The notes under the pieces: generated by a model | Told to the model about the DNA's origin: nothing | The model's input: only the letters and a program-made list of their open reading frames with translations | The model's database searches: none | Position numbers and translations under genes: made by a program | Shown here: positions 10,495-64,000 of the stretch, piece by piece | How the letters are laid out: each line of letters opens with the position of its first letter | Numbering within the stretch: position 1 is the stretch's first letter | NCBI GenBank assembly: GCA_965207375.1 | Contig: CBDBMG010000002.1 | Coordinates: forward strand, 1 to 64,000 | DNA: 64,000 nucleotides | Origin: Nitrosopumilaceae archaeon | GTDB taxonomy: Archaea; Thermoproteota; Nitrososphaeria; Nitrososphaerales; Nitrosopumilaceae | Direction: 5' to 3'

Positions 10495-11005
10495 TAGAAT
10501 AATAAAAAATTGAAAATTTAAATGGTGAGTAGGGATCGAAGGATCCACTAGTACAGTACTACAAAAAAAGGAATAAGATTCTGGCACGAATGAACACTGA
10601 AGATTCTGGCAAGAGATAGTTTATAAAAATTTAATCCCTACTTTTGGCAAATGTACTATAATGACTAATATGAGCCAAAAGTAGGGATTAAACTTTTATA
10701 AATTATCTCTTGCCAGAATCTTCAGTGTTCATTTGTGCCAGAATCTTATTCCTTGTTTCCTTACTTTTTGTAGTACTGTACTAGTGGATCCCTTCGATCC
10801 CTACTCACCATTTAAATTTTCAATTTTTTATTATTCTAGTTTGTAAGCTTTTTATAGGGCATTATAATAATCATTCAGGTGCCTATATAGCAGCTACACA
10901 AAATTATACAGGCGCTAACATAATTATGGCTTCTTTACAGGCGCTTGTTAACAACCTGCTTGTGTGGCAAAGCAGCTATGCAAGCAAATTACATCCTTTA
11001 AAAAC
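10495..11005 (-). mobile_element. Family B palindrome-terminated element, copy 1 (palindrome 10495-10838, body cut by MULE)
   Basis: Near-identical to 53513-54396; 25-nt loop at 10649-10673. Confidence 0.9.
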
Positions 11006-18240: not shown

Positions 18241-19490
<1,250 letters not shown>

Positions 19491-20199: not shown

Positions 20200-20910
20200 C
20201 GTAACCTTAAGAAACCAGTATTGCTTTGTGCCCCTAACAGATTGATCATAATTGAAAGATTTGCTTCCATTTGTTTATTTGAGGAATCGACTCCTTTGAG
20301 GAAATCTTTAACAGACATGCCATGCTTTCCAGTCATTTTTAAAACATTGTATATTCCACTGGAAAGCTCCCTCAGCTCTTTTTGCCAGAGGTAGTAAAAC
20401 ACAAATTCAGGATTCTTACGGAAGCGTGAATCCTTATTTAGCAAGCGTGACTTGACATACTTGCAAAAATTTAGTTTGACTTCCCTGGGATGAATTCACC
20501 ATATCTCCCAGTAGGAAATAGACATGGGAAACACATCACATCAAGATATTTCAATCTGTTATCTAATGCTGGCTCTTCAATTTTTAGCATTTTGTAGTGC
20601 TCTAGATCTGACCCTGAAGGCAAGCTTTCATCCATACGACGAATTGTGTAGGCTTCAAGCTCTGCAATGTCAGTTTTAGTGGCCTTTCTAATAAGAATGC
20701 TGCCGGTGCTGCTAACAACCTCTATAGCTTTTTTAACAGCATGATCAACACAGTTTTCAATATTTTTATAAGGCCAATTGGTTTCTTTCAACTTTTTAAC
20801 AGCTGTTTTGATGTCATTAACATCAACCACCAAAGTCTGCCAAACCACTTTGTCTTTTGTCAGTCGACCATCAAGCAGAATATATAATTCAGGATCTGGT
20901 AGCACTTGAA
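20200..20910 (-). mobile_element. Helitron/Helentron RepHel N-terminal fragment
   Basis: AVKKLKETNWPYKNI, CFPCLFPTGRYGE, YVKSRLLNKDSRFRKNPEFVFY, and VRGTKQYW after a frameshift; HUH and helicase parts absent. Confidence 0.8.
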
Positions 20911-22419
20911 GGTCTTCTTTCGGTACATGGAGATCAATGTGAGTAGCTCACTAAATATATTATTGTGCCATAAACTATATAGCTAGTTAGCTATGTCAAT
21001 GTTTGCTGGCATGCACAGGCTCCGAAATTTAGGTAGCACATAGTAGTGACCACACCCCCTTCGTATAGGCGCTGATTGATTTACAGATTAAATATAGATA
21101 CCACATGCAATTTTTTTGCAAATTCAAGCAATTTTAATTACCAATTTATAATTATGCATGCGCAGGCTGGCAATTTTCAGCTATAGCCATAATGTGACTT
21201 GGTGAGTTTTCCCATGTTGAGTCAAATTAAGCTGCAGGCTCCACTCTTCTAGCAAGGATTCCACTTTTGCCATGTCTAACTCTTGCCCCATTGTGTAGCT
21301 TGATCTCAACGGTTGTAATGTGGTGAGCTGCTACACCCGCTAAATTCATTCCTCTCTCATTCTAATTTCCTTTCATTTTATCATCTACAGGGTTGCAGTT
21401 TCTTACCCATTAACTAATCCTATGCAACTTATTGTTATGAAAAACTGATTCTAAATAGAGCATATGTGTTATATTCCTAAATAGTTACAAATACGTCATA
21501 ATTTACAAAAGCGTCATAATTACTTAGAAATTTTAATTGTAGTGTTGCATGTTGCACATGTAATACAAGTAGCTATAGCGTCAGCGTAACGTTTATAGTA
21601 TATTATTTTCTGAGCTAAACATGCATAATAAAACTAGCTGTATATACAGACCTATATACTACTCCGTCTTTGTAAAATGCTTCTTTGGTGTTAAAAACTT
21701 GAAAGAACTCTTCATTGCCAGTCTTATCCTATCAATGTCTAGTGGAAGTTTCTTTTTCCCGGTAAGCTGCATTTTCATCAGTTGCTAGGATTTGCTAGTG
21801 TTTTGGTTTTGGTGTCCACATGATATTTAGTAAGATAAAATTGCATGATTACATTAAATACTTGAAAATAATTTATTTGTGCAGTTATTCACTATATAAT
21901 ACATTTTAAGTGTTTTGGTTGTTTCATCCTCTGGCTTGGTTTTAGATACGTGCTCCATGCCTTACAGGTATACAGCTGTAGTATTGTCTCGTTCACAGGA
22001 TGATAACTCAGGGACCTTCATCAGCACAAGATGTCATTACAATGGCAGGCGATTGTTTTGGCTATAATTTTAATGCAATCTTTACTGTTGGAGTGGCTTG
22101 TGGTGTAAAAAGAATAGTATGTTGGATGTTTTAGTTTCACAAAATGTGACATTGTACACAGGTCCAAGACATGGCACCGATAAACGGGGAAAACCAGAAA
22201 TAATAAGCAGAGATATAACTAATTTGCTAACATCTAAATTTTTTCTCCAGCATTTTGCTAATCCACCTGAGTGGCCAACTCAAAGTAGTAAAATAGCCGC
22301 AAGATTAACAAAGAGCTTTTCTATTTTAATCAATTTTTCGTCTTGCCAGTGATGTCTAAACTTACTTTTACCATATAGCAGGTTATTTTTGTGGTGCTTT
22401 AATTTTTGCGATGAAAGAG

Positions 22420-26703: not shown

Positions 26704-28355
26704 CTAAACAAAAACAGCCTGGCTGTAAAAAAAGTGCGAGGCCAATCAGAAGCCACAAATATAAGCGACCAAAAACTCTGATATCAAGTAAGGCCAAGAA
26801 ATTGAACATTTTATTAAGAATCTTTTTACTTGAATGACATACAATAGTTTACAGGGCATTTTCACAACTATGATTGGCTTTGTCACTTGGCCACCTTATA
26901 AAAGATGATAGTGCAAAAAGGTGGCCAAGTGACAAAGCCAATCATAGTTGTGAAAATGCCCTGTAAACTATTGTATGTCATTCAAGTAAAAAGATTCTTA
27001 ATAAAATGTTCAATTTCTTGGCCTTACTTGATATCAGAGTTTTTGGTCGCTTATATTTGTGGCTTCTGATTGGCCTCGCACTTTTTTTACAGCCAGGCTG
27101 TTTTTGTTTAGCATATCACTGCTTTTTGTAAATATTCAAAAACAGATTATATACTATAAACAAGTCCTGACAAGAAACCTTATATAAAGTAGCTATGCAG
27201 AGTAATAAAATTTTAAAGGGGAGAGGAGGAAGTTAATATTTTGGGTATTTCCCTTGTATTCCCCCAAATAACTAATGAACATTATAAAGTATGTGTAATT
27301 ATAATATAATTGTTAGCTATGTAGGTGGAGAACAGTTGAGAACTTCAATGAAGGCTACATCATTGCCATCCTCTACTGTTGATTGATCTACAGGAGAAGA
27401 CAATTAATATTATAGTGCAAAATATTGTGTATGCTAATAGTGACAGTGGTCTCCTATTTATAATGTGTGGCCACTGTTCACCTCTTGTTGTTTGGTATAA
27501 TTATCATGGCACATTAACATGAATGAAATCGTTAAAGGCTAATTTTGATAAACTGAAGTGTCATAATTTCTTTAAACTTATCCTGAAGATTCATATATCA
27601 ATATAGCTTGTGTATCTGAAATTTCATTCAAATGATTTAGAGGGGGTCCGAGTTATGGAAACTATCAACATACAGTGTAAAAGTATCTCTCAAATACATT
27701 GAGGTATTTGCTTTATGCTGAAAGTTGTTTGTCTGGTAGAGCATACATAGGAGAAGTGTTGATACAAATTTGGTTGAAATCCATGCAGAAATGAGTGAGT
27801 TATTAGACAAACAAGTGTATGAACTAAATGAGTGTTTAAATATAAATTCCGGGATTCACGCCAGGGGTCACGCAAGCCCACGAAAAGTGTGCGATGAAAA
27901 TGAAAGAAAGAAAGTAGAAAGAAAAAGAAAACGACGGCCGCGTAAATTTTTTTTTACTGGAAGGAGGACTTTATAAGGCTGTATCAGAAGACTGGCTGGT
28001 TCGATTTCGATGAAATTTGGGTTACTGATTCTACATTAAATGAAGGTACTAATTCTCTAATTAACGAGCGAAAAGGGGCGGGGCAGATGGTTCGTCGTGC
28101 GTTGTCGCAAAACGAGCACATAAAACTCGCAATGGCTGATACTCAGGAATGGAGGCAGCTATTTACTTCATTGTTGGTATATTGATTCTATATAGTAAGA
28201 ACGTACTAGGTCCGTAATAACTAAGCGGTAGCTTTTATGGCGGCTTAGTTACAGCGTCTGCGAATTTTTGAGCGGTACTACCTGTAAATAACTCACTCAT
28301 TCGTCGCGTACGGCTGCTTCTTCTTGGCCTCGCGACTCACTATCGTGAGTCTTGA
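26704..28355 (-). mobile_element. Family A palindrome-terminated element, copy 1
   Basis: 194-bp arms (26704-26897 / 26918-27111) with no mismatch seen, 20-nt loop; reverse complement of 44544-46147. Confidence 0.92.
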
Positions 28356-30037: not shown

Positions 30038-30302
30038 AAAATTTAAAAAGTGAGTAGGGATCAATCATCTTTCACTGCTACAAAAAGTAAGGAAACAACG
30101 AATAAGATTTTGGCACAAGAGAACACTAAAGTTTAATCCCTACTTTTGGCTTGATCATAGCTAGGTACTAATCTACTGAAATTGTGAGCCAAAAGTAGGG
30201 ATTAAACTTTAGTGTTCTCTTGTGCCAAAATCTTATTCCTTGTTTCCTTACTTTTTGTAGCAGTGAAAGATGATTGATCCCTACTCACTTTTGAATTTTT
30301 TT
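30038..30302. repeat. Divergent family B' palindrome (shorter arms, 35-nt loop 30152-30186)
   Basis: gtgagtagggatc...tttaatccctacttttggct / agccaaaagtagggattaaa...gatccctactcac. Confidence 0.85.
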
Positions 30303-44543: not shown

Positions 44544-46147
44544 TCAAGACTCACGATAGTGAGTCGCGAGGCCAAGAAGAAGCACCCGTACGCGACGAAT
44601 GAGTGAGTTATTTACACGTAGCACCGCTCTGAAATTTGAAAACGCTGTAACTAAGCCGCCACGACAGCTATCGCCTAGTTATTCAGGACTCAGAACGTTC
44701 TAACCATATAGAATTAGTAACCCGACAATGGAGGAAATCGGCGCCACCAATCCTAAGTACCAGCCATTGCGAGTTTTATGGCACCCGTTCGTGCGCCCAC
44801 GCTCGAAAAACCATCCCCTTGGCACCTACTTACTCGTTTACTAAACAAATAGTACCTTCAATGTATGAAGAATCGTTGACCTGAAGTCGTTTGATATTAA
44901 ACTCCTTCCTGTAATCAAAAATATTTTAGGCGCCCGTCGTTTTTTTTTCTTTCTTCTTCTTTCTTTCATTTTCATCGCACACTTTTTGTGCGCTTGCGCG
45001 TGAATTCCGGAATTTCTATTTAAAACACTCACACTTATTTGTCTAATAACTCACTCATTTCTGCATGGATTTCAACCAAATTTGTATCAACACTTCTCCT
45101 ATGTATGCTCTACCAGAAAAACAACTTTCAGCATAAAGCAAATACCTAACTATATTTGAGAGATACTTTTACACTGCATGTTGATAGTTTCCATAACTCG
45201 GACCCCCTCTAAATCATTTGAATAAAATTTCAGATACACAAACTATATTGATACATGAATCTTCAGGATAAGTTTAAAGAAATTGTGACACTTCAGTTTG
45301 TCAAAATTAGCCTTTAATGATCATTCATGCTTATGTGCCATGCAAGATAATTATACCAAACAACACGAGGTGAACAGTGGCCACACATTATAAATAGGAG
45401 ACCACTGTCCTGTTAGCATGCACAAAATTTATTTATAGCATTATAATATATCTTCTCCTGTAGATCAATCAACAGTACAGGACATGATGGCAATGATGTA
45501 GCCTTCATTGAGGTTCTTCACTGTTCTCCACCTATATACATAGCTAACAATTATAGTAATACGTACTTTATATGTTCATTAGCTACTTGAGGGAAATACA
45601 AGCCAAGGAAACACCTAAAGTATTAACTTCCAGCTCCTCTACCCTTTAAATTTTTATTACTCTGCATACTTCATATAAGGTTTCTTGTCAGAACTTGTTT
45701 ATAATTGTAATCCATTTACAAAAAGCAGTGATATGCTAAACAAAAACAGTCTGGCTGTAAAAAAGTGCGAGGCCAATCAGAAGCCACAATGGCTATAAGC
45801 GACCAAAATCTCTGATATCAAGTAAGGCCAAGAAGTTGAACATTTTATTAAGAATCCTTTTACTTGAATGACATACAATAGTTTACAGGGCATTTTCACA
45901 ACTATGATTGGCTTTGTCACTTGGCCACCTTTTTGTACTATCATCTTTTATAAGGTGGCCAAGTGACAAAGCCAATCATAGTTGTGAAAATGCCCTGTAA
46001 ACTATTGTATGTCATTCAAGTAAAAGGATTCTTAATAAAATGTTCAACTTCTTGGCCTTACTTGATATCAGAGATTTTGGTCGCTTATAGCCATTGTGGC
46101 TTCTGATTGGCCTCGCACTTTTTTACAGCCAGGCTGTTTTTGTTTAG
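44544..46147 (+). mobile_element. Family A palindrome-terminated element, copy 2
   Basis: 5' TC, hairpin GACTCAC-gata-GTGAGTC, GCGAGGCCAA; 196-bp arms 45736-45931 / 45952-46147; ends GTTTAG. Confidence 0.92.
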
Positions 46148-47559
46148 CATTTGTAATATACGTATATACTGGGTGAATGTATGACACGTATAGCAAGGCA
46201 CCTAAATATTGTATGAAATGAAGTGTTAGCCTATGAATGTTGACTTGCGTGATTATTAATGCAATATTGGATGATTGAATCCCATCTAACAATCACTAAA
46301 CCTTGAACTAAACACATGTGCAATAGTTAGCAAAACAATAACATACTTTTACGCCCTGACTTGTGGTGTTTATTGTAGGTGCCCGTCTGCTTCAGCTTAT
46401 ATATTTAATATGGTAGTAGCCCTTAGCTAAGGAAATACAGCTGGGGATTCTCATTTCACATCCAATAAAGGTCTTTGTGCTGGATCAACACTGAGTTATC
46501 TCGAGTGCTTGCAATCGATTGTCGCACATACTGAATTTCATAGTTTACAGAGTTTAGAGCTGTCGTACACTAAATATACAAGCAAGCCTTGGATTCACCA
46601 AAGTTTTTTCACAAATATATCAAAAACACTATTTTGCCACAATTTTTACTGTTAAAGTTTTTTGCTGTACTGTAGTTTAAATGTTTTTATAGGCCGTATA
46701 ATATTTAAGCAAGCCCTGTTTGTTTGCTTGCGTGTGGTTAAAAACCGGTTTACTGGCTTATGTCGGTTTTAGACCCAAAGTGTCTAGGCCAGTCTACTGG
46801 TCTATGCGGGTATAAGGGTTAAGAGAATAGTGCCTTTGGAGGGCACTGCGATTGGGTTGCCATGACCTGGAACTGCTCCCATTGCTAACTAGATTCCTTG
46901 TAGTATGGTGTGTCTATGTTGAGTGGCTAGTAGTGTTACTAATGCTCCAATTAATATTTAATGATGTAATTGTTAACCTACACAGTAGTTGTATATGATG
47001 TACAGTGAGAATAAGATATAAATTAAAACCCACAATCAATTCTATTATGTGTGACTATATAAGAACTGAGTAAACCTTTACTAAGTGTATGATGATAAGT
47101 GTACTATGTTGATGTTTGAAATGTCTTAAAAATTTTGCAAGGCCTATAGCTGTTGCTATAAGGGCCTCATGTAATCACAAAACAGTGTGTACATCATTGG
47201 CACATGTGGTAGAGCTTAGCGATACTGCCATTTCATTATCACCATTGATACTCTGTCAAACGTTTACAATATGTATATTTCACGATATTTTATGAGCTCT
47301 CAGGTTTGATGTATTCCTATCATTTTCTTCAAAGTTTATAACACACCTTTTGGCTTTTGATCTGTTTCAATGTATTTATAATAATTAGCTGGAGAAGCTG
47401 AAATACTTTTCAAAATTCAATTTTGAACCTGCTACGTAATGGCAATAACTCTACAGCATCATCAACAATTTTGACTACAGTCATTACAATGGTGATACTG
47501 AAATGACAATATCACTAACTTGTGCAATGATATACACACTATTTTGTGATTCCATTAGG

Positions 47560-51979: not shown

Positions 51980-53512
51980 ACATATCCGTAACTGCTAGGA
52001 GAGACTGGAATAGTAACTTTTACTGGCGGTTAATGTATATCTGCGCTTGTTTATTTGCAGCTGAAAATGAAACAACTTTTGAGATGTTTGTAAACAAACT
52101 TGTTGAGAGCTGCAAGTATATTACATTAACAAAGCATTAATGATACATACTTGACATTATAGATACAAATGTAATAATGCCTACAATGAATGAATGGATC
52201 GTTTTCTTGATCTTCTAATTAGCATTTAAATGCTACATATATATACTGGCATGTATTAGCAATGATTGTGGGATTCAGTTTTCAGGGTGTCAAAGGTGAA
52301 TTACAAAGGTTTGCATGAAAGTGCATATTTTCCATAATTTTATTTTGGTGTTTTAATTTAAACCCACAATCAATTGTAATAACAGTTAGTAAAAAAGACA
52401 TGACTACTTATGAATGTTTTGGGATATGATGTTTCCACTGATTTGTTGATCAGAGTAAGGAATTTTTGGAAGAATCAAACAAAACCATGTTGGATTCTGT
52501 TCTGCAACTGGTAATATCTGATGGTAGCTAAGTTTTGAGAGCTTTAAAATTTGCGAGGTTTTGTTTATGCTGTTGACAGATTAAACTTGTGTGTCAATAT
52601 ATAACTCCATACATGTCCTATTAGTGCATCAACCAATGTCAATGTATACTCTTTGTCTAACCTTCAAAGCTTCAACAAGTGTTTCTTACTACACAAATTT
52701 ACTTACTGTGTTTTTGTCACAGATTTAATGTTAAATACATTACAAAAGTTACCTACAAAATACTTTCTTCTCTGTGAGGTACTCATGTAATAACAGCCGA
52801 CAACTATAAATCCTTTTGGCTGCTCACTTAAGAGGTAAGGGATGCACAAATTACCAGCATACTCCATTATGTAGTTTATATAAACATTTTGAATATTACA
52901 TTTAACAGTCAAAGGTTGGTACCTTCGAATGTTTGTTTATGCACTACATAATATTATGTCGATATACATAGTTTTAAATACGTAAAATCACGAAATTGGT
53001 TACCCTGCATGTTAAAACTGAATCCCACAATCAAATGTTATAAGTGCCAATATATTAGGCTGAAGGGCAGTTGAGAGCAGATTGTGTTCTATGTTACAAT
53101 TTAATGGTCAAATCTTCGTTTCCCTGAAAGGAATAGAAATTTTTGGAAGAGGTTTTTTGGGGGGACTCAAAAAACCACACAAAATAACACAAAAGATATT
53201 TGTGACCGATTTTGGAAAACAGTTACAAATCACACATGAAATCCAGTGTATTTCTGCATGTATTTAATGATATTTCTACTTATGTGTATGTTATTTTTTA
53301 CATTCTTTCAGTAATTTGAGCATTGAATTCCTTGTAGTGCTATGAAATATTATTGGTGTAGCGTTTAGGGGATTATTAATAGCAAAGAATGGCAACTGAA
53401 CACAGCGTATAACCACACTCTATTTATAGTACAGTGGGAAAACCTATAGCTAGGATGTTTACAGAGGTGACAGTAAGCTTGTTTACAAAAACAAGTGTGT
53501 TTACCTATTACA

Positions 53513-55291
53513 CTAGAATGATAAAAAATTTAAAATTTAAATGGTGAGTAGGGATCGAAGGGATCCACTAGTACAGTGCTACAAAAAGTAAGGAAACAAG
53601 AAATAAGATTCTGGCACAAATGAACACTGAAGATTCTGGTAAGAGATAATTTATAAAAGTTTAATCCCTACTTTTGGCTCATATTAGAGCTGTGCAATAC
53701 TATCGATACTACCCGGTATCGTGATATCAAGCAGTATCGATCTACTTCAAGCTTTGGTATCGTAGGTATCGATTATGCAACATATAACCAGACAGGTGAT
53801 GATTTTGGGTCACATTTTCAACTGATTTGGATCAAACTTGTTGGATAAGATCTCTATTAATGTGATAAAATTTGCAACTTCATATACTAAGTGTGAAAAG
53901 ACCAAATTTTATATGCACATTAGCCTGGTTATCTCATGTAGGCCATATCATGTGAAATGTCAATACCTAAAGTATATCGTGATACCCTGACTATGGTATC
54001 GTGATACGCAAACTTGAGGTGGTATCGCACAGCTCTAGCTCATATTAGTCATTATAGTACATTTGCCAAAAGTAGGGATTAAACTTTTATAAATTATCTC
54101 TTACCAGAATCTTCAGTGTTCATTTGTGCCAGAATCTTATTTCTTGTTTCCTTACTTTTTGTAGCACTGTACTAGTGGATCCCTTCGATCCCTACTCACC
54201 ATTTAAATTTTAAATTTTTTATTATTCTAGTTTGTAACCTTTTTATAGGGTATTATAATAATCATTCAGATGCCTACATAGCAGCTACACAAAATTATAC
54301 AGGCGCTTACATAATTATGGCTTCTTTACAGGCGCTTGTTAACAACTTGCTTGTGTAGCAAAGCAGCTGTGCAAGCAAATTACGTCCTTTAAAAACAGCG
54401 AATATATTTGTCCAGCTGCTTGTCGATGTTCAGCTTATAATCAGGAACATCGATAAGTGGCTGGCGCGTAAATTAGTCTGGCGCGTCAATTGGTCTGGCG
54501 TGCGAGACAAAGACTGGTGTGCGTTTCAGTTGAATTAGTTTAGTTATAATTTATGGAGTCGTATAAAGTATAATCGTTTTGGAATAGTTGTTAGTTATCA
54601 AGTAATGTAACAGTGGATGTGGCGTAAGTTGATGCTGTGTGTTTTTGTGTAATGGGATAGCAACTACGTGTGTATGCGCATGCGCAACATTTAAGTATTG
54701 TAGCCTAGAATGCTTCTAAGCCATAACACAATATTCCCTCTGAAAACATCGAAGACATATGCAACATTCCATGCATGAAGCGATTTGTAACTATAAAACG
54801 GCAGGTGCACACTATTGTACCTGTTTACACCTTGTATGGAATGTTGTGGTCAAGCTGAAATTGTTTACGCATTCCAATCGATAGAGAAGAAAGTAAAGAA
54901 AGGAAGTATAAAAGAATCACCATGGCGCAGTGGATAAATCGTCTTCGGAACAACAGTTTCGTAAATGGGAAGGGATAACCTTTGCTGTGCTGAATTTCTG
55001 GAGCCATACACCTAGCGAAACCCGGTCTTACGGCAGGCAGGCCGGCAGGCTGGCAGGCCGGCAGACGAAATCCAGGTGATTTTCGAATTTTTTAAAATTC
55101 ACTATAGATCGAAATAATCGACATTTCACTTTGTTAAACAAATGTAAAGCATTATTATAGCTGTGCCAGTGCGTTTAAGTTGGTTTTTTCGGCTAAAGTA
55201 TATTGTAAGGTGGGTTTTTAGACGTGTGAAAATTCCGCATTCCATACATTCCTTATCGATCCCTATTATTAAGTACTACCGTACTTAATGA
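53513..55291 (-). mobile_element. Family B palindrome-terminated element, complete copy inside the 3' LTR
   Basis: Empty site given by the other LTR (ttaca|atatc), no TSD; on the minus strand T|TC...CTAG|T; 166-bp arms 53513-53678 / 54065-54230. Confidence 0.95.
53685..54037. mobile_element. hAT MITE inserted in the palindrome loop
   Basis: TIR tagagctgtgc.atac / gtatcgcacagctcta; perfect TSD GCTCATAT; related ends near 62669 and 63273. Confidence 0.93.
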
Positions 55292-55422
55292 ATATCACCA
55301 TAAAACGAAGTGCTAATAAAAGTGTAAATTATAACTAATTCCATACACAATAACAATGTGTGTTACAGGATTCTATTTACTTAGCTATAGTGTATGCATT
55401 ATGTCACATCTCCCTCCTGAGC

Positions 55423-59232: not shown

Positions 59233-59784
59233 ATACCACTTCTGACACCATGTAGCGTTTAGGGGATTATTAATAGCAAAGAACAGCAACTGAACACAGG
59301 GTATAACCACACTCTATTTATAGTACAGTGGGAAAACCTATGGCTAGGATGTTTACAAAGGTGACAGTAAGCTTGTTTACAAAAACAAGTGTGTTTACCT
59401 ATTACAATATCACCATAAAACAAAGTGCTAATAAAAGTGTAAATTATAACTAATTCCATACACAATAACAATGTGTGTTACAGGATTCTATTTACTTAGC
59501 TATAGTGTATGCATTATGTCACAATTGGGAATGCAATATTTTTCATGTTGCAGTGATAAATATACTGAAATAAAAATGTGTGATTTGGAACTGTTTTCCA
59601 AAATCCGGTCACATTTAAATAAATCATAAAATAAATAAATCATATATCAGAGCTGTAGCAAGCTGAAATGAAGTGGTATGACCAGGAGGAGAGTGATGAT
59701 GTGTGACCAAAGTGCAGAAAATTCGAATTTCATGAATATAATTTTTGTGAACTAACATTTTGACAAGAAGAGAAGTAAAAGGCT

Positions 59785-62460: not shown

Positions 62461-63629
62461 GTATGTTATTTACGTATTTACTGTTTTATTATTACAAAGT
62501 GCATATAAATTATATACTGCAATTTATATCTATGTTTTCTTTCATTCCATGTGCTGTAGCTACGTAAGTGTTTGTGATTACCTGCTGTTTTTACTTAGTG
62601 TATTGCTTTTAATGATATAGTGGCTACATGCAGTGTACGTACTTTCTTTTATTATTTGACCTTATTACTAGGGCTGTGCAATAATGGAAAAACCTATATC
62701 TCCATAATGCTGATAATATATTACAAAATTATCTCGATAACGATAGTTATCACGATAAAATTATGATAGGGTATTATGCATATATTTTAGATTTTTGTAT
62801 ATGATATTGATACATAATTACATACACTAGAATTCATTACAATCGATTGTGGGTTTCTATTAAGAGAACAAAACTACCAAGACTTAATTTTCAATATCCT
62901 CATTATACCTTCTACGGAATCATGATGATAGCAAAGTTTTGGTCTCTTTATGCTCACCACATTTAGCTACATTGTAAAGTATCGCACTCTGCAAAGGAGG
63001 ATCAATAGTTTTGGCTTCCACAAAGCGACAATCGCATCATGGCTAAGCACGACTACCTACTGGCCAATCCGAAGGCAAGGGAGTGCAAACTTGCAGCAAG
63101 GTATGTTGAGTGTACTCACAAGGCGAGTGCAAGATTCACGCGAGTTTCTTGCAAGTAAAACGTTTGTACCCGTTACCTTGTAGCTAAGGTGTACTGCAGT
63201 TATAATACAATCAGTATACAATCAGTAGGACTATGTACGTACATATGTACTACACACATACGTAGTAATAAGTAGGGCTGTGTGATAAGTTAGATAAATC
63301 GATTATCGAGATAGTAAGTTCAAATTACCGGATACTATTGTATACGTACTACACAAAACACACAAATACATTTGTACACAGGAATTTCAGAATTGCTAGG
63401 AGATTATTATTATTATTATTTAGCTAATACTTATACGTATGTACATGTAATTACTTTGATTATTTTGTTATTGTTATTGATATTGTTGTTTACATACTAA
63501 GATTAAGCGCAATCTTTGTTTGTCCAAATGTTCGCACTACTCTATGGAACATAACATGTTGGCATACTTTGTTATATTGTTGGCATACTTTGTTAAATAG
63601 CTAATTATGATTTATACAAGGATTAATAC

Positions 63630-64000
63630 ACTGTCCTGTTAACATGCACAAAAATTTTATTTATATTGTCTTCTCCTGTAGATCAATCAACAGTACTAGT
63701 AGAGGATGGCAATGATGTAGCCTACATTGAAGTTCACAACTGTTCTCCACCTATATAGCTAACAATTATAGTAATAACACATACTTTATATGCTCATTAG
63801 CTACTTGGGGGAAATACAAGGGAAACACCCAAAGTATTAACTTGCACCTCTCCCCTATAAAATTTTATTACTCTGCATACTTTATTTAAGGTTTCTTGTC
63901 AGGACTTGTTTATAATTGTAATCTGTTTACAAAAAGCAGTGATATGCTAAACAAAAACAGCCTGGCTGTAAAAAATTGCGAGGTTAATCAGAAGCCACAA
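63630..64000 (+). mobile_element. Family A copy 3 (5'-truncated; palindrome runs off the window end)
   Basis: Matches ~45403-45789, including gatatgctaaacaaaaacagcctggctg. Confidence 0.9.

Follow-up and report, generated by a model that had tools for sequence, protein, structure and literature searches.

Helitron-like transposons of the Helitron2 (HLE2) group are described, in the parts of the published accounts drawn on here, as starting at T/TC and carrying a 5' hairpin, asymmetric terminal inverted repeats (TIRs) of 8-15 nt with compensatory changes, and a short 3' hairpin that follows the right repeat, and as inserting without target-site duplication (TSD) (PMC3627910, PMC5148889). Canonical Helitron hairpins end 10-12 nt short of the terminus according to the available sections of one of these papers (PMC5148889), and the available text of the HELIANO paper proposes the domain DUF6570 as a marker of HLE2 and reports proto-Helentron-like elements only from Phytophthora, with none in 404 other species (PMC11417382). 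In a stretch of 64,000 nt (the window; positions 1-64000 of contig C3, one of the four contigs, C1-C4, of assembly GCA_965207375.1), we found copies of two transposon families, A and B, which, together with at least three others (C, D and E), carry at the right end a palindrome of 290-420 bp running flush to the terminal nucleotide. We assign A and B to an HLE2 lineage with proto-Helentron-like ends and not to a new class, since TC, the 5' hairpin, the subterminal inverted repeat (subTIR) and the short 3' hairpin already make up the published Helitron2 pattern; the "distinct class" proposed in a first-pass annotation of the window is therefore not supported, the ends matching that pattern and the Rep protein of the lineage carrying DUF6570. 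It is likely that A and B, with at least D and E, are non-autonomous HLE2 Helitron-like elements in which the palindrome is a cis-acting right-end module. The sequence evidence comprises 2.1 Mb of DNA from one host and one other, probably related assembly.

Copies in the window and their right-end palindromes

The principal B copy, of subfamily B1, is inserted in a long terminal repeat (LTR) with the boundaries T|TC...CTAG|T (Table 1). The sister LTR is 97.8% identical to the joined flanks across the junction, with the empty site TTACA|ATATCACC, and because it reads contiguously, the insertion must have been precise and without TSD. The arms of the B palindrome (53512-53678 and 54065-54231) were found to be 167 nt long and 99% complementary, in keeping with the long terminal palindrome of the first-pass annotation; its contiguity did not hold, however, because a 353-bp hAT-like miniature inverted-repeat transposable element (MITE) sits in the loop and accounts for the 386 nt separating the arms. 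The loop measures about 25 nt in intact B1 copies. The nested MITE has the TIR TAGAGCTGTGCAATAC and an 8-bp TSD, GCTCATAT, at 53677-53684 and 54038-54045, and a second copy of it (96%) lies at C4:534332-534667.

The complete A copy at 44544-46149 has palindrome arms of 199 nt pairing at 99%, the outer one taking in the flanking T at 46150, and the copy at 26704-28355 has arms of 194 nt pairing at 100% (26704-26897 and 26918-27111, with a 20-nt loop), close to the arms of about 195 bp noted in the first-pass annotation. Folded as single-stranded DNA, the palindrome of the first copy reached -248 kcal/mol versus -42.6 kcal/mol for shuffled sequences (z = -46; 0/100 shuffles as stable). The short 5' hairpins gave -8.1 kcal/mol in A (z = -2.1; 9/200 shuffles as stable) and -6.2 kcal/mol in B (z = -3.9; 0/200 as stable). 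All the motifs that had been listed for the two families, namely the TC, hairpin, both subTIRs and CTAG of B and the corresponding motifs of A, were found in place. A microsatellite also occupies part of the 5' region of both families, as a GCCT/GCCG-type run in B and a TTTC-rich one in A.

Across the assembly, 28 of the 37 A-type palindromes have both termini, and 27 of these 28 carry the family body on exactly one side. The complete A palindromes span 392-422 bp, and none is flanked by a TSD. A lone solo palindrome, at C3:371360-371770, also lacks a TSD and adjoins a 25-nt fragment of the A left end. The attachment to a body, the lack of TSDs and the tight length range thus indicate that the palindromes are not independent MITEs, and the two findings that the first-pass annotation had named as fatal to its view of the foldback as part of the element, TSD-flanked MITEs without the body and highly variable arm lengths, did not appear.

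In 17 well-aligned A copies, private substitutions affected 0.55% of the body sites (64/11,565) and 0.23% of the arm sites (15/6,644; Fisher p = 0.024), the two arms of a single copy paired at 99.2% on average, and identity between copies was 97.9% in the arms and 94.3% in the bodies. Arm-to-arm gene conversion is not claimed, as the copies are too young for 0.23% versus 0.55% private changes to be informative about it. Between subfamilies, most differences were mirrored in the two arms. Specifically, mirrored and one-sided differences numbered 6 to 1 between the main A and second A subfamily consensus, 16 to 9 (plus 2 non-complementary) between main A and an A-like copy from the other assembly, and 13 to 5 between B2 and B1. 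The other-assembly copy is 77-79% identical to the A1 palindrome by BLAST (88% over aligned columns), and its own arms, of 174 nt, pair at 95%; the record holding the A-like copies gave no Helitron_like_N match, and that assembly cannot count as independent because it probably derives from the same or a related host. Judged from these sequences, the symmetry appears to have been maintained during sequence drift, either by selection or by regeneration of one arm from the other.

Table 1. Positions of family A and B copies, their terminal features and associated repeats in the window.
Feature	Position	Strand	Remarks
Family B1 non-autonomous element	53513..55291	-	1779 bp including nested MITE; inside an LTR
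B 5' hairpin ATTAAGTAC-GGTA-GTACTTAAT	55268..55289	-	Adjoins terminal TC (55290-55291)
B left subTIR TAGGGATCGA	55256..55265	-	Core TAGGGAT from element nt 27
B right subTIR TCGATCCCTA	53549..53558	-	36 nt ahead of terminal CTAG
B palindrome, outer arm	53512..53678	.	3' terminus ...CTAG at 53513; 53512 is flanking T
B palindrome, inner arm	54065..54231	.	Inverted copy of 3' end
Nested hAT-like MITE, foreign to B	53685..54037	.	353 bp, in palindrome loop
Sister LTR, empty site for B insertion	59251..59523	+	Matches joined B flanks
5'-truncated B1 copy	10495..11005	-	Palindrome 10495-10840
Palindrome of third B-like subfamily	30038..30300	.	Core TAGGGATCAATC
Family A non-autonomous element	44544..46149	+	1606 bp
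A 5' hairpin GACTCAC-GATA-GTGAGTC	44548..44565	+	Stem-loop behind 5' end
A left subTIR GCGAGGCCAA	44566..44575	+	Core GGCCAA from nt 27
A palindrome	45733..46150	.	Arms 45733-45931 and 45952-46150; 20-nt loop; flush with 3' terminus
A right subTIR TTGGCCTCGC	46107..46116	+	Motif present where expected
A short 3' hairpin ACAGCC-A-GGCTGT	46125..46137	+	12 nt before terminus, within the large palindrome
Second family A copy	26704..28355	-	Palindrome 26704-27111; 5' end at 28355
Third A copy, 5'-truncated	63629..64000	+	Exceeds window; palindrome C3:63947-64365

The LTR that received the B1 copy belongs to a pair (53357-53512 plus 55292-55408 versus 59251-59523; 97.8% identical) bounding an LTR element of about 6 kb, which is older than the B insertion.

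Common plan and insertion sites of families A to E

A census of self-complementary stretches of at least 120 bp yielded 125 in C2-C4 and none in C1. The B-group cluster had 58 entries, about 12 of them microsatellite artefacts and 2 of them tail-to-tail pairs, so that about 44 are B-type; the other clusters were A (37), D (6), E (5) and element C (2 loci). Family D is 1.55 kb long and non-coding, with the left end TC-ATGAACCAC-GGTA-GTGGTTCAT-AA-TAGGGATCC and the right end GGATCCCTATTCTCC...TTTACTAG|T, and family E terminates in ...GCTAG|T. A 5' hairpin (7-9 bp) and inverted repeats (subTIRs of 9-11 nt) were found in every family. The 5' stems vary yet always pair, being GACTCAC, GACACAC, ATTAAGTAC or ATGAACCAC, each with its complement, and these families account for 60 of the 72 perfect stems of at least 7 bp that close a G[AG]TA loop anywhere in the assembly. 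The subTIR pairs covary as well: TAGGGATCGA/TCGATCCCTA in B1 (CGA/TCG), TAGGGATTG/CAATCCCTA in B2 (TTG/CAA) and TAGGGATCC/GGATCCCTA in D (TCC/GGA). In addition, a short hairpin 12-20 nt ahead of the terminus has been maintained by paired changes, reading ACAGCC-A-GGCTGT in A, ACACC-CAA-GGTGT in an A subfamily and ACACCC-A-GGGTGT in C.

The subTIRs are built on one of two core motifs, GGCCAA in A and C and TAGGGAT in B and D; the core begins at nt 31 in C but at nt 27 in the others (A, B1, B2 and D). Each palindrome contains 4-6 copies of the core (2-3 per arm), and the bodies of A, B and D contain none, with one in the 7.7-kb body of C. The arm sequences of the GGCCAA and TAGGGAT types could not be aligned, but A and the B-like D begin alike: their initial 11 nt, TCAAGACTCAC and TCATGAACCAC, agree at 8 positions. 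We regard A and B as distant members of one lineage because of these similar left ends and the common placement of the core, and the earlier statement that the two families show no evident sequence similarity was too strong.

The 5' TC was present in 36/36 A left ends and 42/45 B left ends, and the base ahead of the element was A in 34/36 A copies and 41/45 B copies. The T|TC...CTAG|T boundaries that had been read from the B copy in the window are thus correct for that copy, as is the lack of a TSD, but they do not represent the rule: it is one of four T^T cases, whereas most copies lie at A^T. Right ends were divided into inner and outer ones by a simple pattern, with a few misfiled. Outer A right ends read ...GTTTAG in 41/48 cases and TTTAG+CAT in 36/48; outer B right ends read ...TCTAG followed by T in 27/32, with T at +1 in 31/32. 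The A end first taken as TTAG is usually two bases longer, TTTAGCA (...GTTTAGCA, then T), and the copy at 26704-28355, ending in ...GTTTAG without CA, is one of the few exceptions. Termini are TC...CTAG in B, D and E, in agreement with the CTRR 3' end, which fails for A (...AGCA) and C (...GAGA).

Three comparisons of filled and empty sites, each with a boundary ambiguous by one shared letter, were all free of TSDs. Besides the B copy in the LTR, an A copy (C2:61644-63274) lies within a B arm as CTTTTATAAA|...|TTATCTCTTACC, where intact B reads cttttataaattatctcttacc; because the flanks are contiguous in intact B, A is delimited as TC...GTTTAGCA between A and T, with the one-base ambiguity. 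In the third, the 3' end of element C lies within a B2 copy (GTGATA|TAATTAG). These precise, TSD-free insertions, the Helitron-type ends and the RepHel relative with the same architecture described below support the rolling-circle (HUH) reading of the first-pass annotation.

Several further arrangements were noted. At C3:371357-371777, the solo A palindrome is joined directly to the opening 25 nt of an A left end (GTTTAGCA|TCAAGACTCAC...), beyond which the sequence is unrelated; a circle or a tandem copy would give such a junction, of which this is a single instance. Two pairs of B2 copies lie tail to tail with a short TA repeat between them, at C3:437011-439017 (92% alike) and C3:647323-648076 (84%). 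Many A and B copies are flanked by (TA)n, suggesting that TA microsatellites are insertion hot spots. In all palindromes of A, B, C and D, the T flanking the terminus pairs with an A located immediately inside the inner arm, so that the symmetry reaches one base past the element and into the A^T target pattern; the inner arm may have been copied from an inserted copy, or the extension may be due to chance.

A RepHel-encoding relative and the probable host

Four matches to the Helitron Rep domain were obtained in the assembly. One of them belongs to element C (C3:312056-321386), which has three consecutive open frames at C3:312056-319217. The first open reading frame (ORF1, 1214 aa) contains DUF6570 (PF20209, E = 2e-14) and Helitron_like_N (E = 1.8e-17), the second encodes a PIF1 helicase (632 aa, E = 2.1e-26) and the third a UCH protease (546 aa). 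The ORF1 translation shows HFH and YCTKY, which we take to be the HUH and two-tyrosine signatures, and DUF6570 is listed for 42 of the 44 ORF1 homologues found. A phmmer comparison of ORF1 with solved structures gave nothing at E <= 0.001, and Pfam revealed no endonuclease domain in the seven ORFs scanned, UCH or OTU proteases being present instead.

About 1.8 kb downstream of the frames, element C has a 3' palindrome of 361 bp with a 2-nt loop. Its last bases, TTGGCCGCTCC-TTTTTTACACCCAGGGTGTTTTTGATTGAGA, parallel those of A, TTGGCCTCGCAC-TTTTTTACAGCCAGGCTGTTTTTGTTTAGCA, and the last ~45 nt are A-like. A second copy (C2:183267-189340) is 96% identical, ends at the same base and diverges beyond it. 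The left end of this C2 copy (C2:183267-191421), 2 kb further upstream, reads A|TCAAGACACAC-GGTA-GTGTGTC-AGCGGCCAAGA; it is laid out as in family A, and its subTIR is the complement of the one at the right end of this copy. A and C thus share the layout of the ends, and about three-quarters of the terminal 40-45 nt are alike by a count made by eye, but the subTIRs differ, so that we consider C a relative and not the direct partner of A or B. On sequence grounds, then, A and B are associated with RepHel by way of this relative; the search for long RepHel copies with the same ends, which the first-pass annotation had recommended, was successful to that extent and returned no direct A or B partner in the 2.1 Mb. 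The right end of the C3 copy occupies an A^T site in the B2 element.

The locus C4:378836-385674 (L006) was considered as a second autonomous element bearing a palindrome and was rejected, the palindrome at 376400-376686 belonging to a separate 1.55-kb D copy. It is an unrelated second RepHel locus with an OTU protease frame, an upstream 884-aa frame matching DUF5568 and internal tandem repeats of about 93 bp at 384497-385202; no element ends were identified at C4:378836-385674. In metagenome contigs, seven loci encode ORF1 relatives; five of the seven were scanned and had no inverted repeat of at least 40 nt, which is uninformative as the contigs are short and lack element ends. RepHel relatives combining DUF6570 and UCH at 31-42% identity occur in the parasitoid wasps Nasonia and Eretmocerus (P0014, P0038-P0041), the protease-carrying architecture being common to the sponge-type and insect elements. 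Wasp and psyllid homologues have the DUF6570-Rep-Pif1(-UCH) arrangement in common with element C. In the window itself, a decayed RepHel fragment on the minus strand (20235-20932) is 36-42% identical to ORF1 residues 430-676 by tblastn, and a second minus-strand feature about 1.2 kb from it (18241-19041) is an open frame encoding RecQ zinc-binding and RQC domains. The two may be the remains of a decayed Helitron-like element that carried an accessory or captured piece of helicase.

The elements are confined to one part of the assembly. C2-C4 together make up 2.14 Mb of the 4.3-Mb "prokaryotic" assembly and contain all 307 BLAST pieces of B and all 223 of A, both families being high-copy and non-coding, whereas C1 (2.16 Mb) contains no BLAST piece of either. 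C2-C4 also contain LTR elements, hAT-like MITEs and Helitron transposase genes, and neither LTR elements, hAT-like MITEs nor Helitron-like elements were found in C1. The presence of such elements and genes marks C2-C4 as eukaryotic, and these contigs are probably repeat-rich DNA of the host that was binned with the archaeon. Among named homologues, the one nearest to the transposase comes from the demosponge Dysidea avara (61% identity, 68% of the query covered), and the host of A and B is probably a sponge.

The assembly (G000) is listed at a completeness of 99.95 and a contamination of 0.06 despite some 2.14 Mb of eukaryotic DNA. Exact matches to the family A left end were also present in records of two other assemblies labelled as bacterial metagenome-assembled genomes (L015-L018), where a single 5.7-Mb "chromosome" with 36-40% GC accounts for three of the matches, and host DNA seems to have entered those assemblies as well. 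In four public runs (X5-X8; contigs only), contigs end at the A boundary (44553/44565), and no contig spans an empty A site, so that these runs supplied no empty allele. Summed depth was 1e5-1e6 over A versus 20-57 on unique flanks; this is not a copy number, and family A is simply very abundant in these runs.

Readings of the palindrome and comparison with known systems

The sequences themselves show what the elements are, their ends and target, the RepHel relative and the conservation of the palindrome; the steps that follow, and any role of the palindrome, are a model. By analogy with the scheme of nicking, peeling, recutting and reinsertion known for studied Helitrons, a RepHel resembling that of C, with an HUH/two-tyrosine Rep, a Pif1 helicase and a UCH protease, would nick at A|TC and would recognize the left end by two signals, its hairpin and the core motif of the subTIR at nt 27. 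The top strand would be displaced 5' to 3' by the helicase and cut again at the right terminus, and it would be reinserted between A and T without duplication, probably via a circle. Because the right-end module (subTIR, short hairpin and terminus, within the last 140-200 bp) is present a second time upstream in inverted order, the released strand would end in a hairpin with a stem of 140-200 bp flush with the cut site. We infer from this geometry that the stem may keep probable enzyme-binding motifs, 2-3 per arm, double-stranded beside the cut site in the single-stranded intermediate, may reinforce recognition of the end and may mark or strengthen termination.

A number of observations weigh against this interpretation or limit it. 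The A copies are young, as their 0.55% of private body substitutions indicates, so that the symmetry of arms within a copy requires no special maintenance, and only the between-subfamily comparisons, on few independent lineages, argue for constraint. The C copies are damaged. The C3 copy has lost 2 bp at the Rep/helicase junction by comparison with the C2 copy; no left end of the hairpin-plus-GGCCAA type was found in C3:300000-313000 (12 kb upstream), nor the upstream half of the interrupted B2 in C3:270000-313000 (42 kb), for which reasons it was treated as 5'-truncated or rearranged. The C2 copy lacks Rep and is a deletion derivative joining at Rep-frame residue 1117. Within the 2.1 Mb there was no intact RepHel copy and no direct autonomous partner of A or B, or of D or E. 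The A^T target differs from the T^T or TTTT^T given for HLE2 in the available descriptions, as do the CTAG ends of B, D and E. Moreover, no transposition intermediate was seen, and a role as a plain roadblock is doubtful because the stem cannot fold before the helicase has passed.

Among other explanations, it is rather unlikely that the right end was duplicated in inverted orientation in a master copy on one or a few occasions, through template switching or tail-to-tail nesting, and that the duplication has since hitch-hiked without function. The youth of the copies would explain within-copy symmetry without selection, tail-to-tail B2 pairs do exist (for example C3:437011-439017) and a function of the palindrome is itself inference. 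However, the palindrome occurs in at least five families of two sequence groups with non-alignable arms, most of the changes that separate subfamilies are present in mirror image in both arms, conservation is higher in the arms than in the bodies, and the divergent copy of the other assembly (~79% identical to A1 by BLAST, 88% over aligned columns) still pairs at 95%. Long perfect palindromes are normally unstable, and their persistence suggests either regeneration by active lineages or selection. A composite origin, with a foldback or MITE repeatedly inserted at, or fused to, the 3' end of an ordinary Helitron-like element, is very improbable. It would agree with the resemblance of the palindrome alone to a long-TIR MITE, with the one solo A palindrome (C3:371360-371770) and with the true MITE that did enter a palindrome loop in the window, but not with the 27 of 28 complete A palindromes that have a body on exactly one side, the absence of flanking TSDs or an outer flank that always begins past the same terminal base. 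Furthermore, the right subTIR, short hairpin and terminus of the element itself all lie in the outer arm, which hence is no passenger, and the layout is identical in five families with unrelated arm sequences. It is scarcely conceivable that the elements are not Helitron-like, but Penelope-like, Crypton-like or of an unknown class with inverted terminal structures; the lack of an intact autonomous A or B partner in the 2.1 Mb could be taken that way, but the TC...CTAG ends, the A^T sites without TSD, the same left-end layout and A-like right end in the RepHel-encoding C, and the agreement of the terminal pattern with Helitron2 features in the available part of the published description (PMC3627910) all contradict it.

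A replicative role has also been considered. That the hairpin serves as a replication structure and not as a terminator, combining an array of Rep motifs in duplex form with an origin or self-primer for the second strand, seems distinctly unlikely, and it is quite improbable that the palindrome is a complementary-strand origin or self-primer as such, whether by recruiting host priming of the kind known from plasmid single-strand origins (sso) or, if the intermediate is linear, through a flush 3' end like that of parvoviruses. Parvovirus terminal repeats carry Rep-binding elements, of which the motif repeats in the stem are reminiscent. In all five families, A to E, the palindrome reaches precisely to the last nucleotide, whereas canonical Helitron hairpins stop 10-12 nt short of it in the available text (PMC5148889). 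Against this suggestion, the Helitron intermediates in the same text are circles with joined ends and have no free 3' end (PMC5148889), and no inverted dimers of whole elements were found, the tail-to-tail pairs being 84-92% alike and separated by TA, as fits independent insertions. Of these possibilities, we prefer that of a cis-acting right-end module in HLE2 elements.

To our knowledge, recognition of the right end and stopping there are understood only for one reconstructed bat element, with a hairpin of 19 bp. In the present elements this signal has been enlarged about twentyfold in a whole lineage and loaded with copies of the subTIR motif, and because the lineage has kept the symmetry of the palindrome through divergence while reaching very high copy numbers, it offers a natural series of variants for right-end function. 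We know of no cis signal in Helitrons by which the single-stranded intermediate becomes double-stranded; if the replicative role were true, it would explain this conversion and would give a eukaryotic Helitron-type transposon a step resembling that of parvoviruses or of plasmid sso. End-finding programs built around TIRs of 11-18 nt and stems only a few bp long would probably mis-annotate these elements. That Helitron1-like ends and target occur together with an HLE2 enzyme in an animal bears on the kinship of the two Helitron groups, since this combination is reported only from Phytophthora in the available text of the HELIANO paper.

Compared with canonical Helitron1 (HLE1), the lineage has in common the 5' TC, CTAG (in B, D and E), the A^T target, insertion without TSD, and a short hairpin lying 12-20 nt before the 3' end, but it also has a 5' hairpin, terminal inverted repeats and DUF6570, which HLE1 lacks in the descriptions available. 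With Helitron2/HLE2, including FoHeli1/2 of Fusarium, it shares hairpins, short asymmetric repeats, no TSD and DUF6570 (available parts of PMC3627910 and PMC5148889). Of the traits by which membership of HLE2 was judged, short asymmetric or subterminal repeats with a 3' hairpin and the proposed marker DUF6570 are present, and T^T insertion is not; unlike the HLE2 elements in those accounts, the present ones have a palindrome of 290-420 bp flush with the terminus in place of a short stem, and their 5' hairpin lies upstream of the left repeat and excludes it. Similar in these respects are the proto-Helentrons of Phytophthora and the HLE2-reverse elements FoHeli3-5, which combine an HLE2-type enzyme with a 3' CTAG, A^T insertion, a 5' stem-loop upstream of the left repeat and no endonuclease domain in the available texts (PMC4067079; PMC11417382). 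The present elements differ from proto-Helentrons in the 5' TC versus TT, and from both groups, as far as described there, in an animal host, probably a sponge, versus an oomycete or fungus and in the passenger UCH or OTU versus SET or TIR; a giant 3' palindrome is not mentioned in the available text of either paper, the supplementary termini figures S17-S19 lying outside it.

Like HINE/DINE-1 elements, including the oyster Cg_HINE, A and B are short, non-coding and high-copy, with subTIRs, a 5' inverted repeat, a 5' microsatellite and a 3' palindrome, but the palindrome stems of HINEs are 5-10 bp, insertion is at TT and the partners have an endonuclease domain, according to the parts of the reports available (PMC4067079; PMC7492417). 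Helentrons in the strict sense have an endonuclease fused to RepHel, and none was present in the scanned ORFs of this lineage; an HUH two-tyrosine Rep with a Pif1-like helicase is encoded by element C, in damaged copies. The palindromes are not TSD-flanked independent units, as MITEs or foldback elements would be. Parvovirus terminal palindromes and the single-strand origins of rolling-circle plasmids are long hairpins with a motif-bearing stem and a nick at the foot, served by an HUH nuclease-helicase, but the likeness is one of functional analogy and not of homology. Full-text literature searches revealed no right-end palindrome of such size, a provisional result because Repbase, most subscription journals and supplements fell outside them. 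The flush right-end palindrome of 290-420 bp thus seems to be new, as a lineage-specific elaboration of the right end in a known superfamily.

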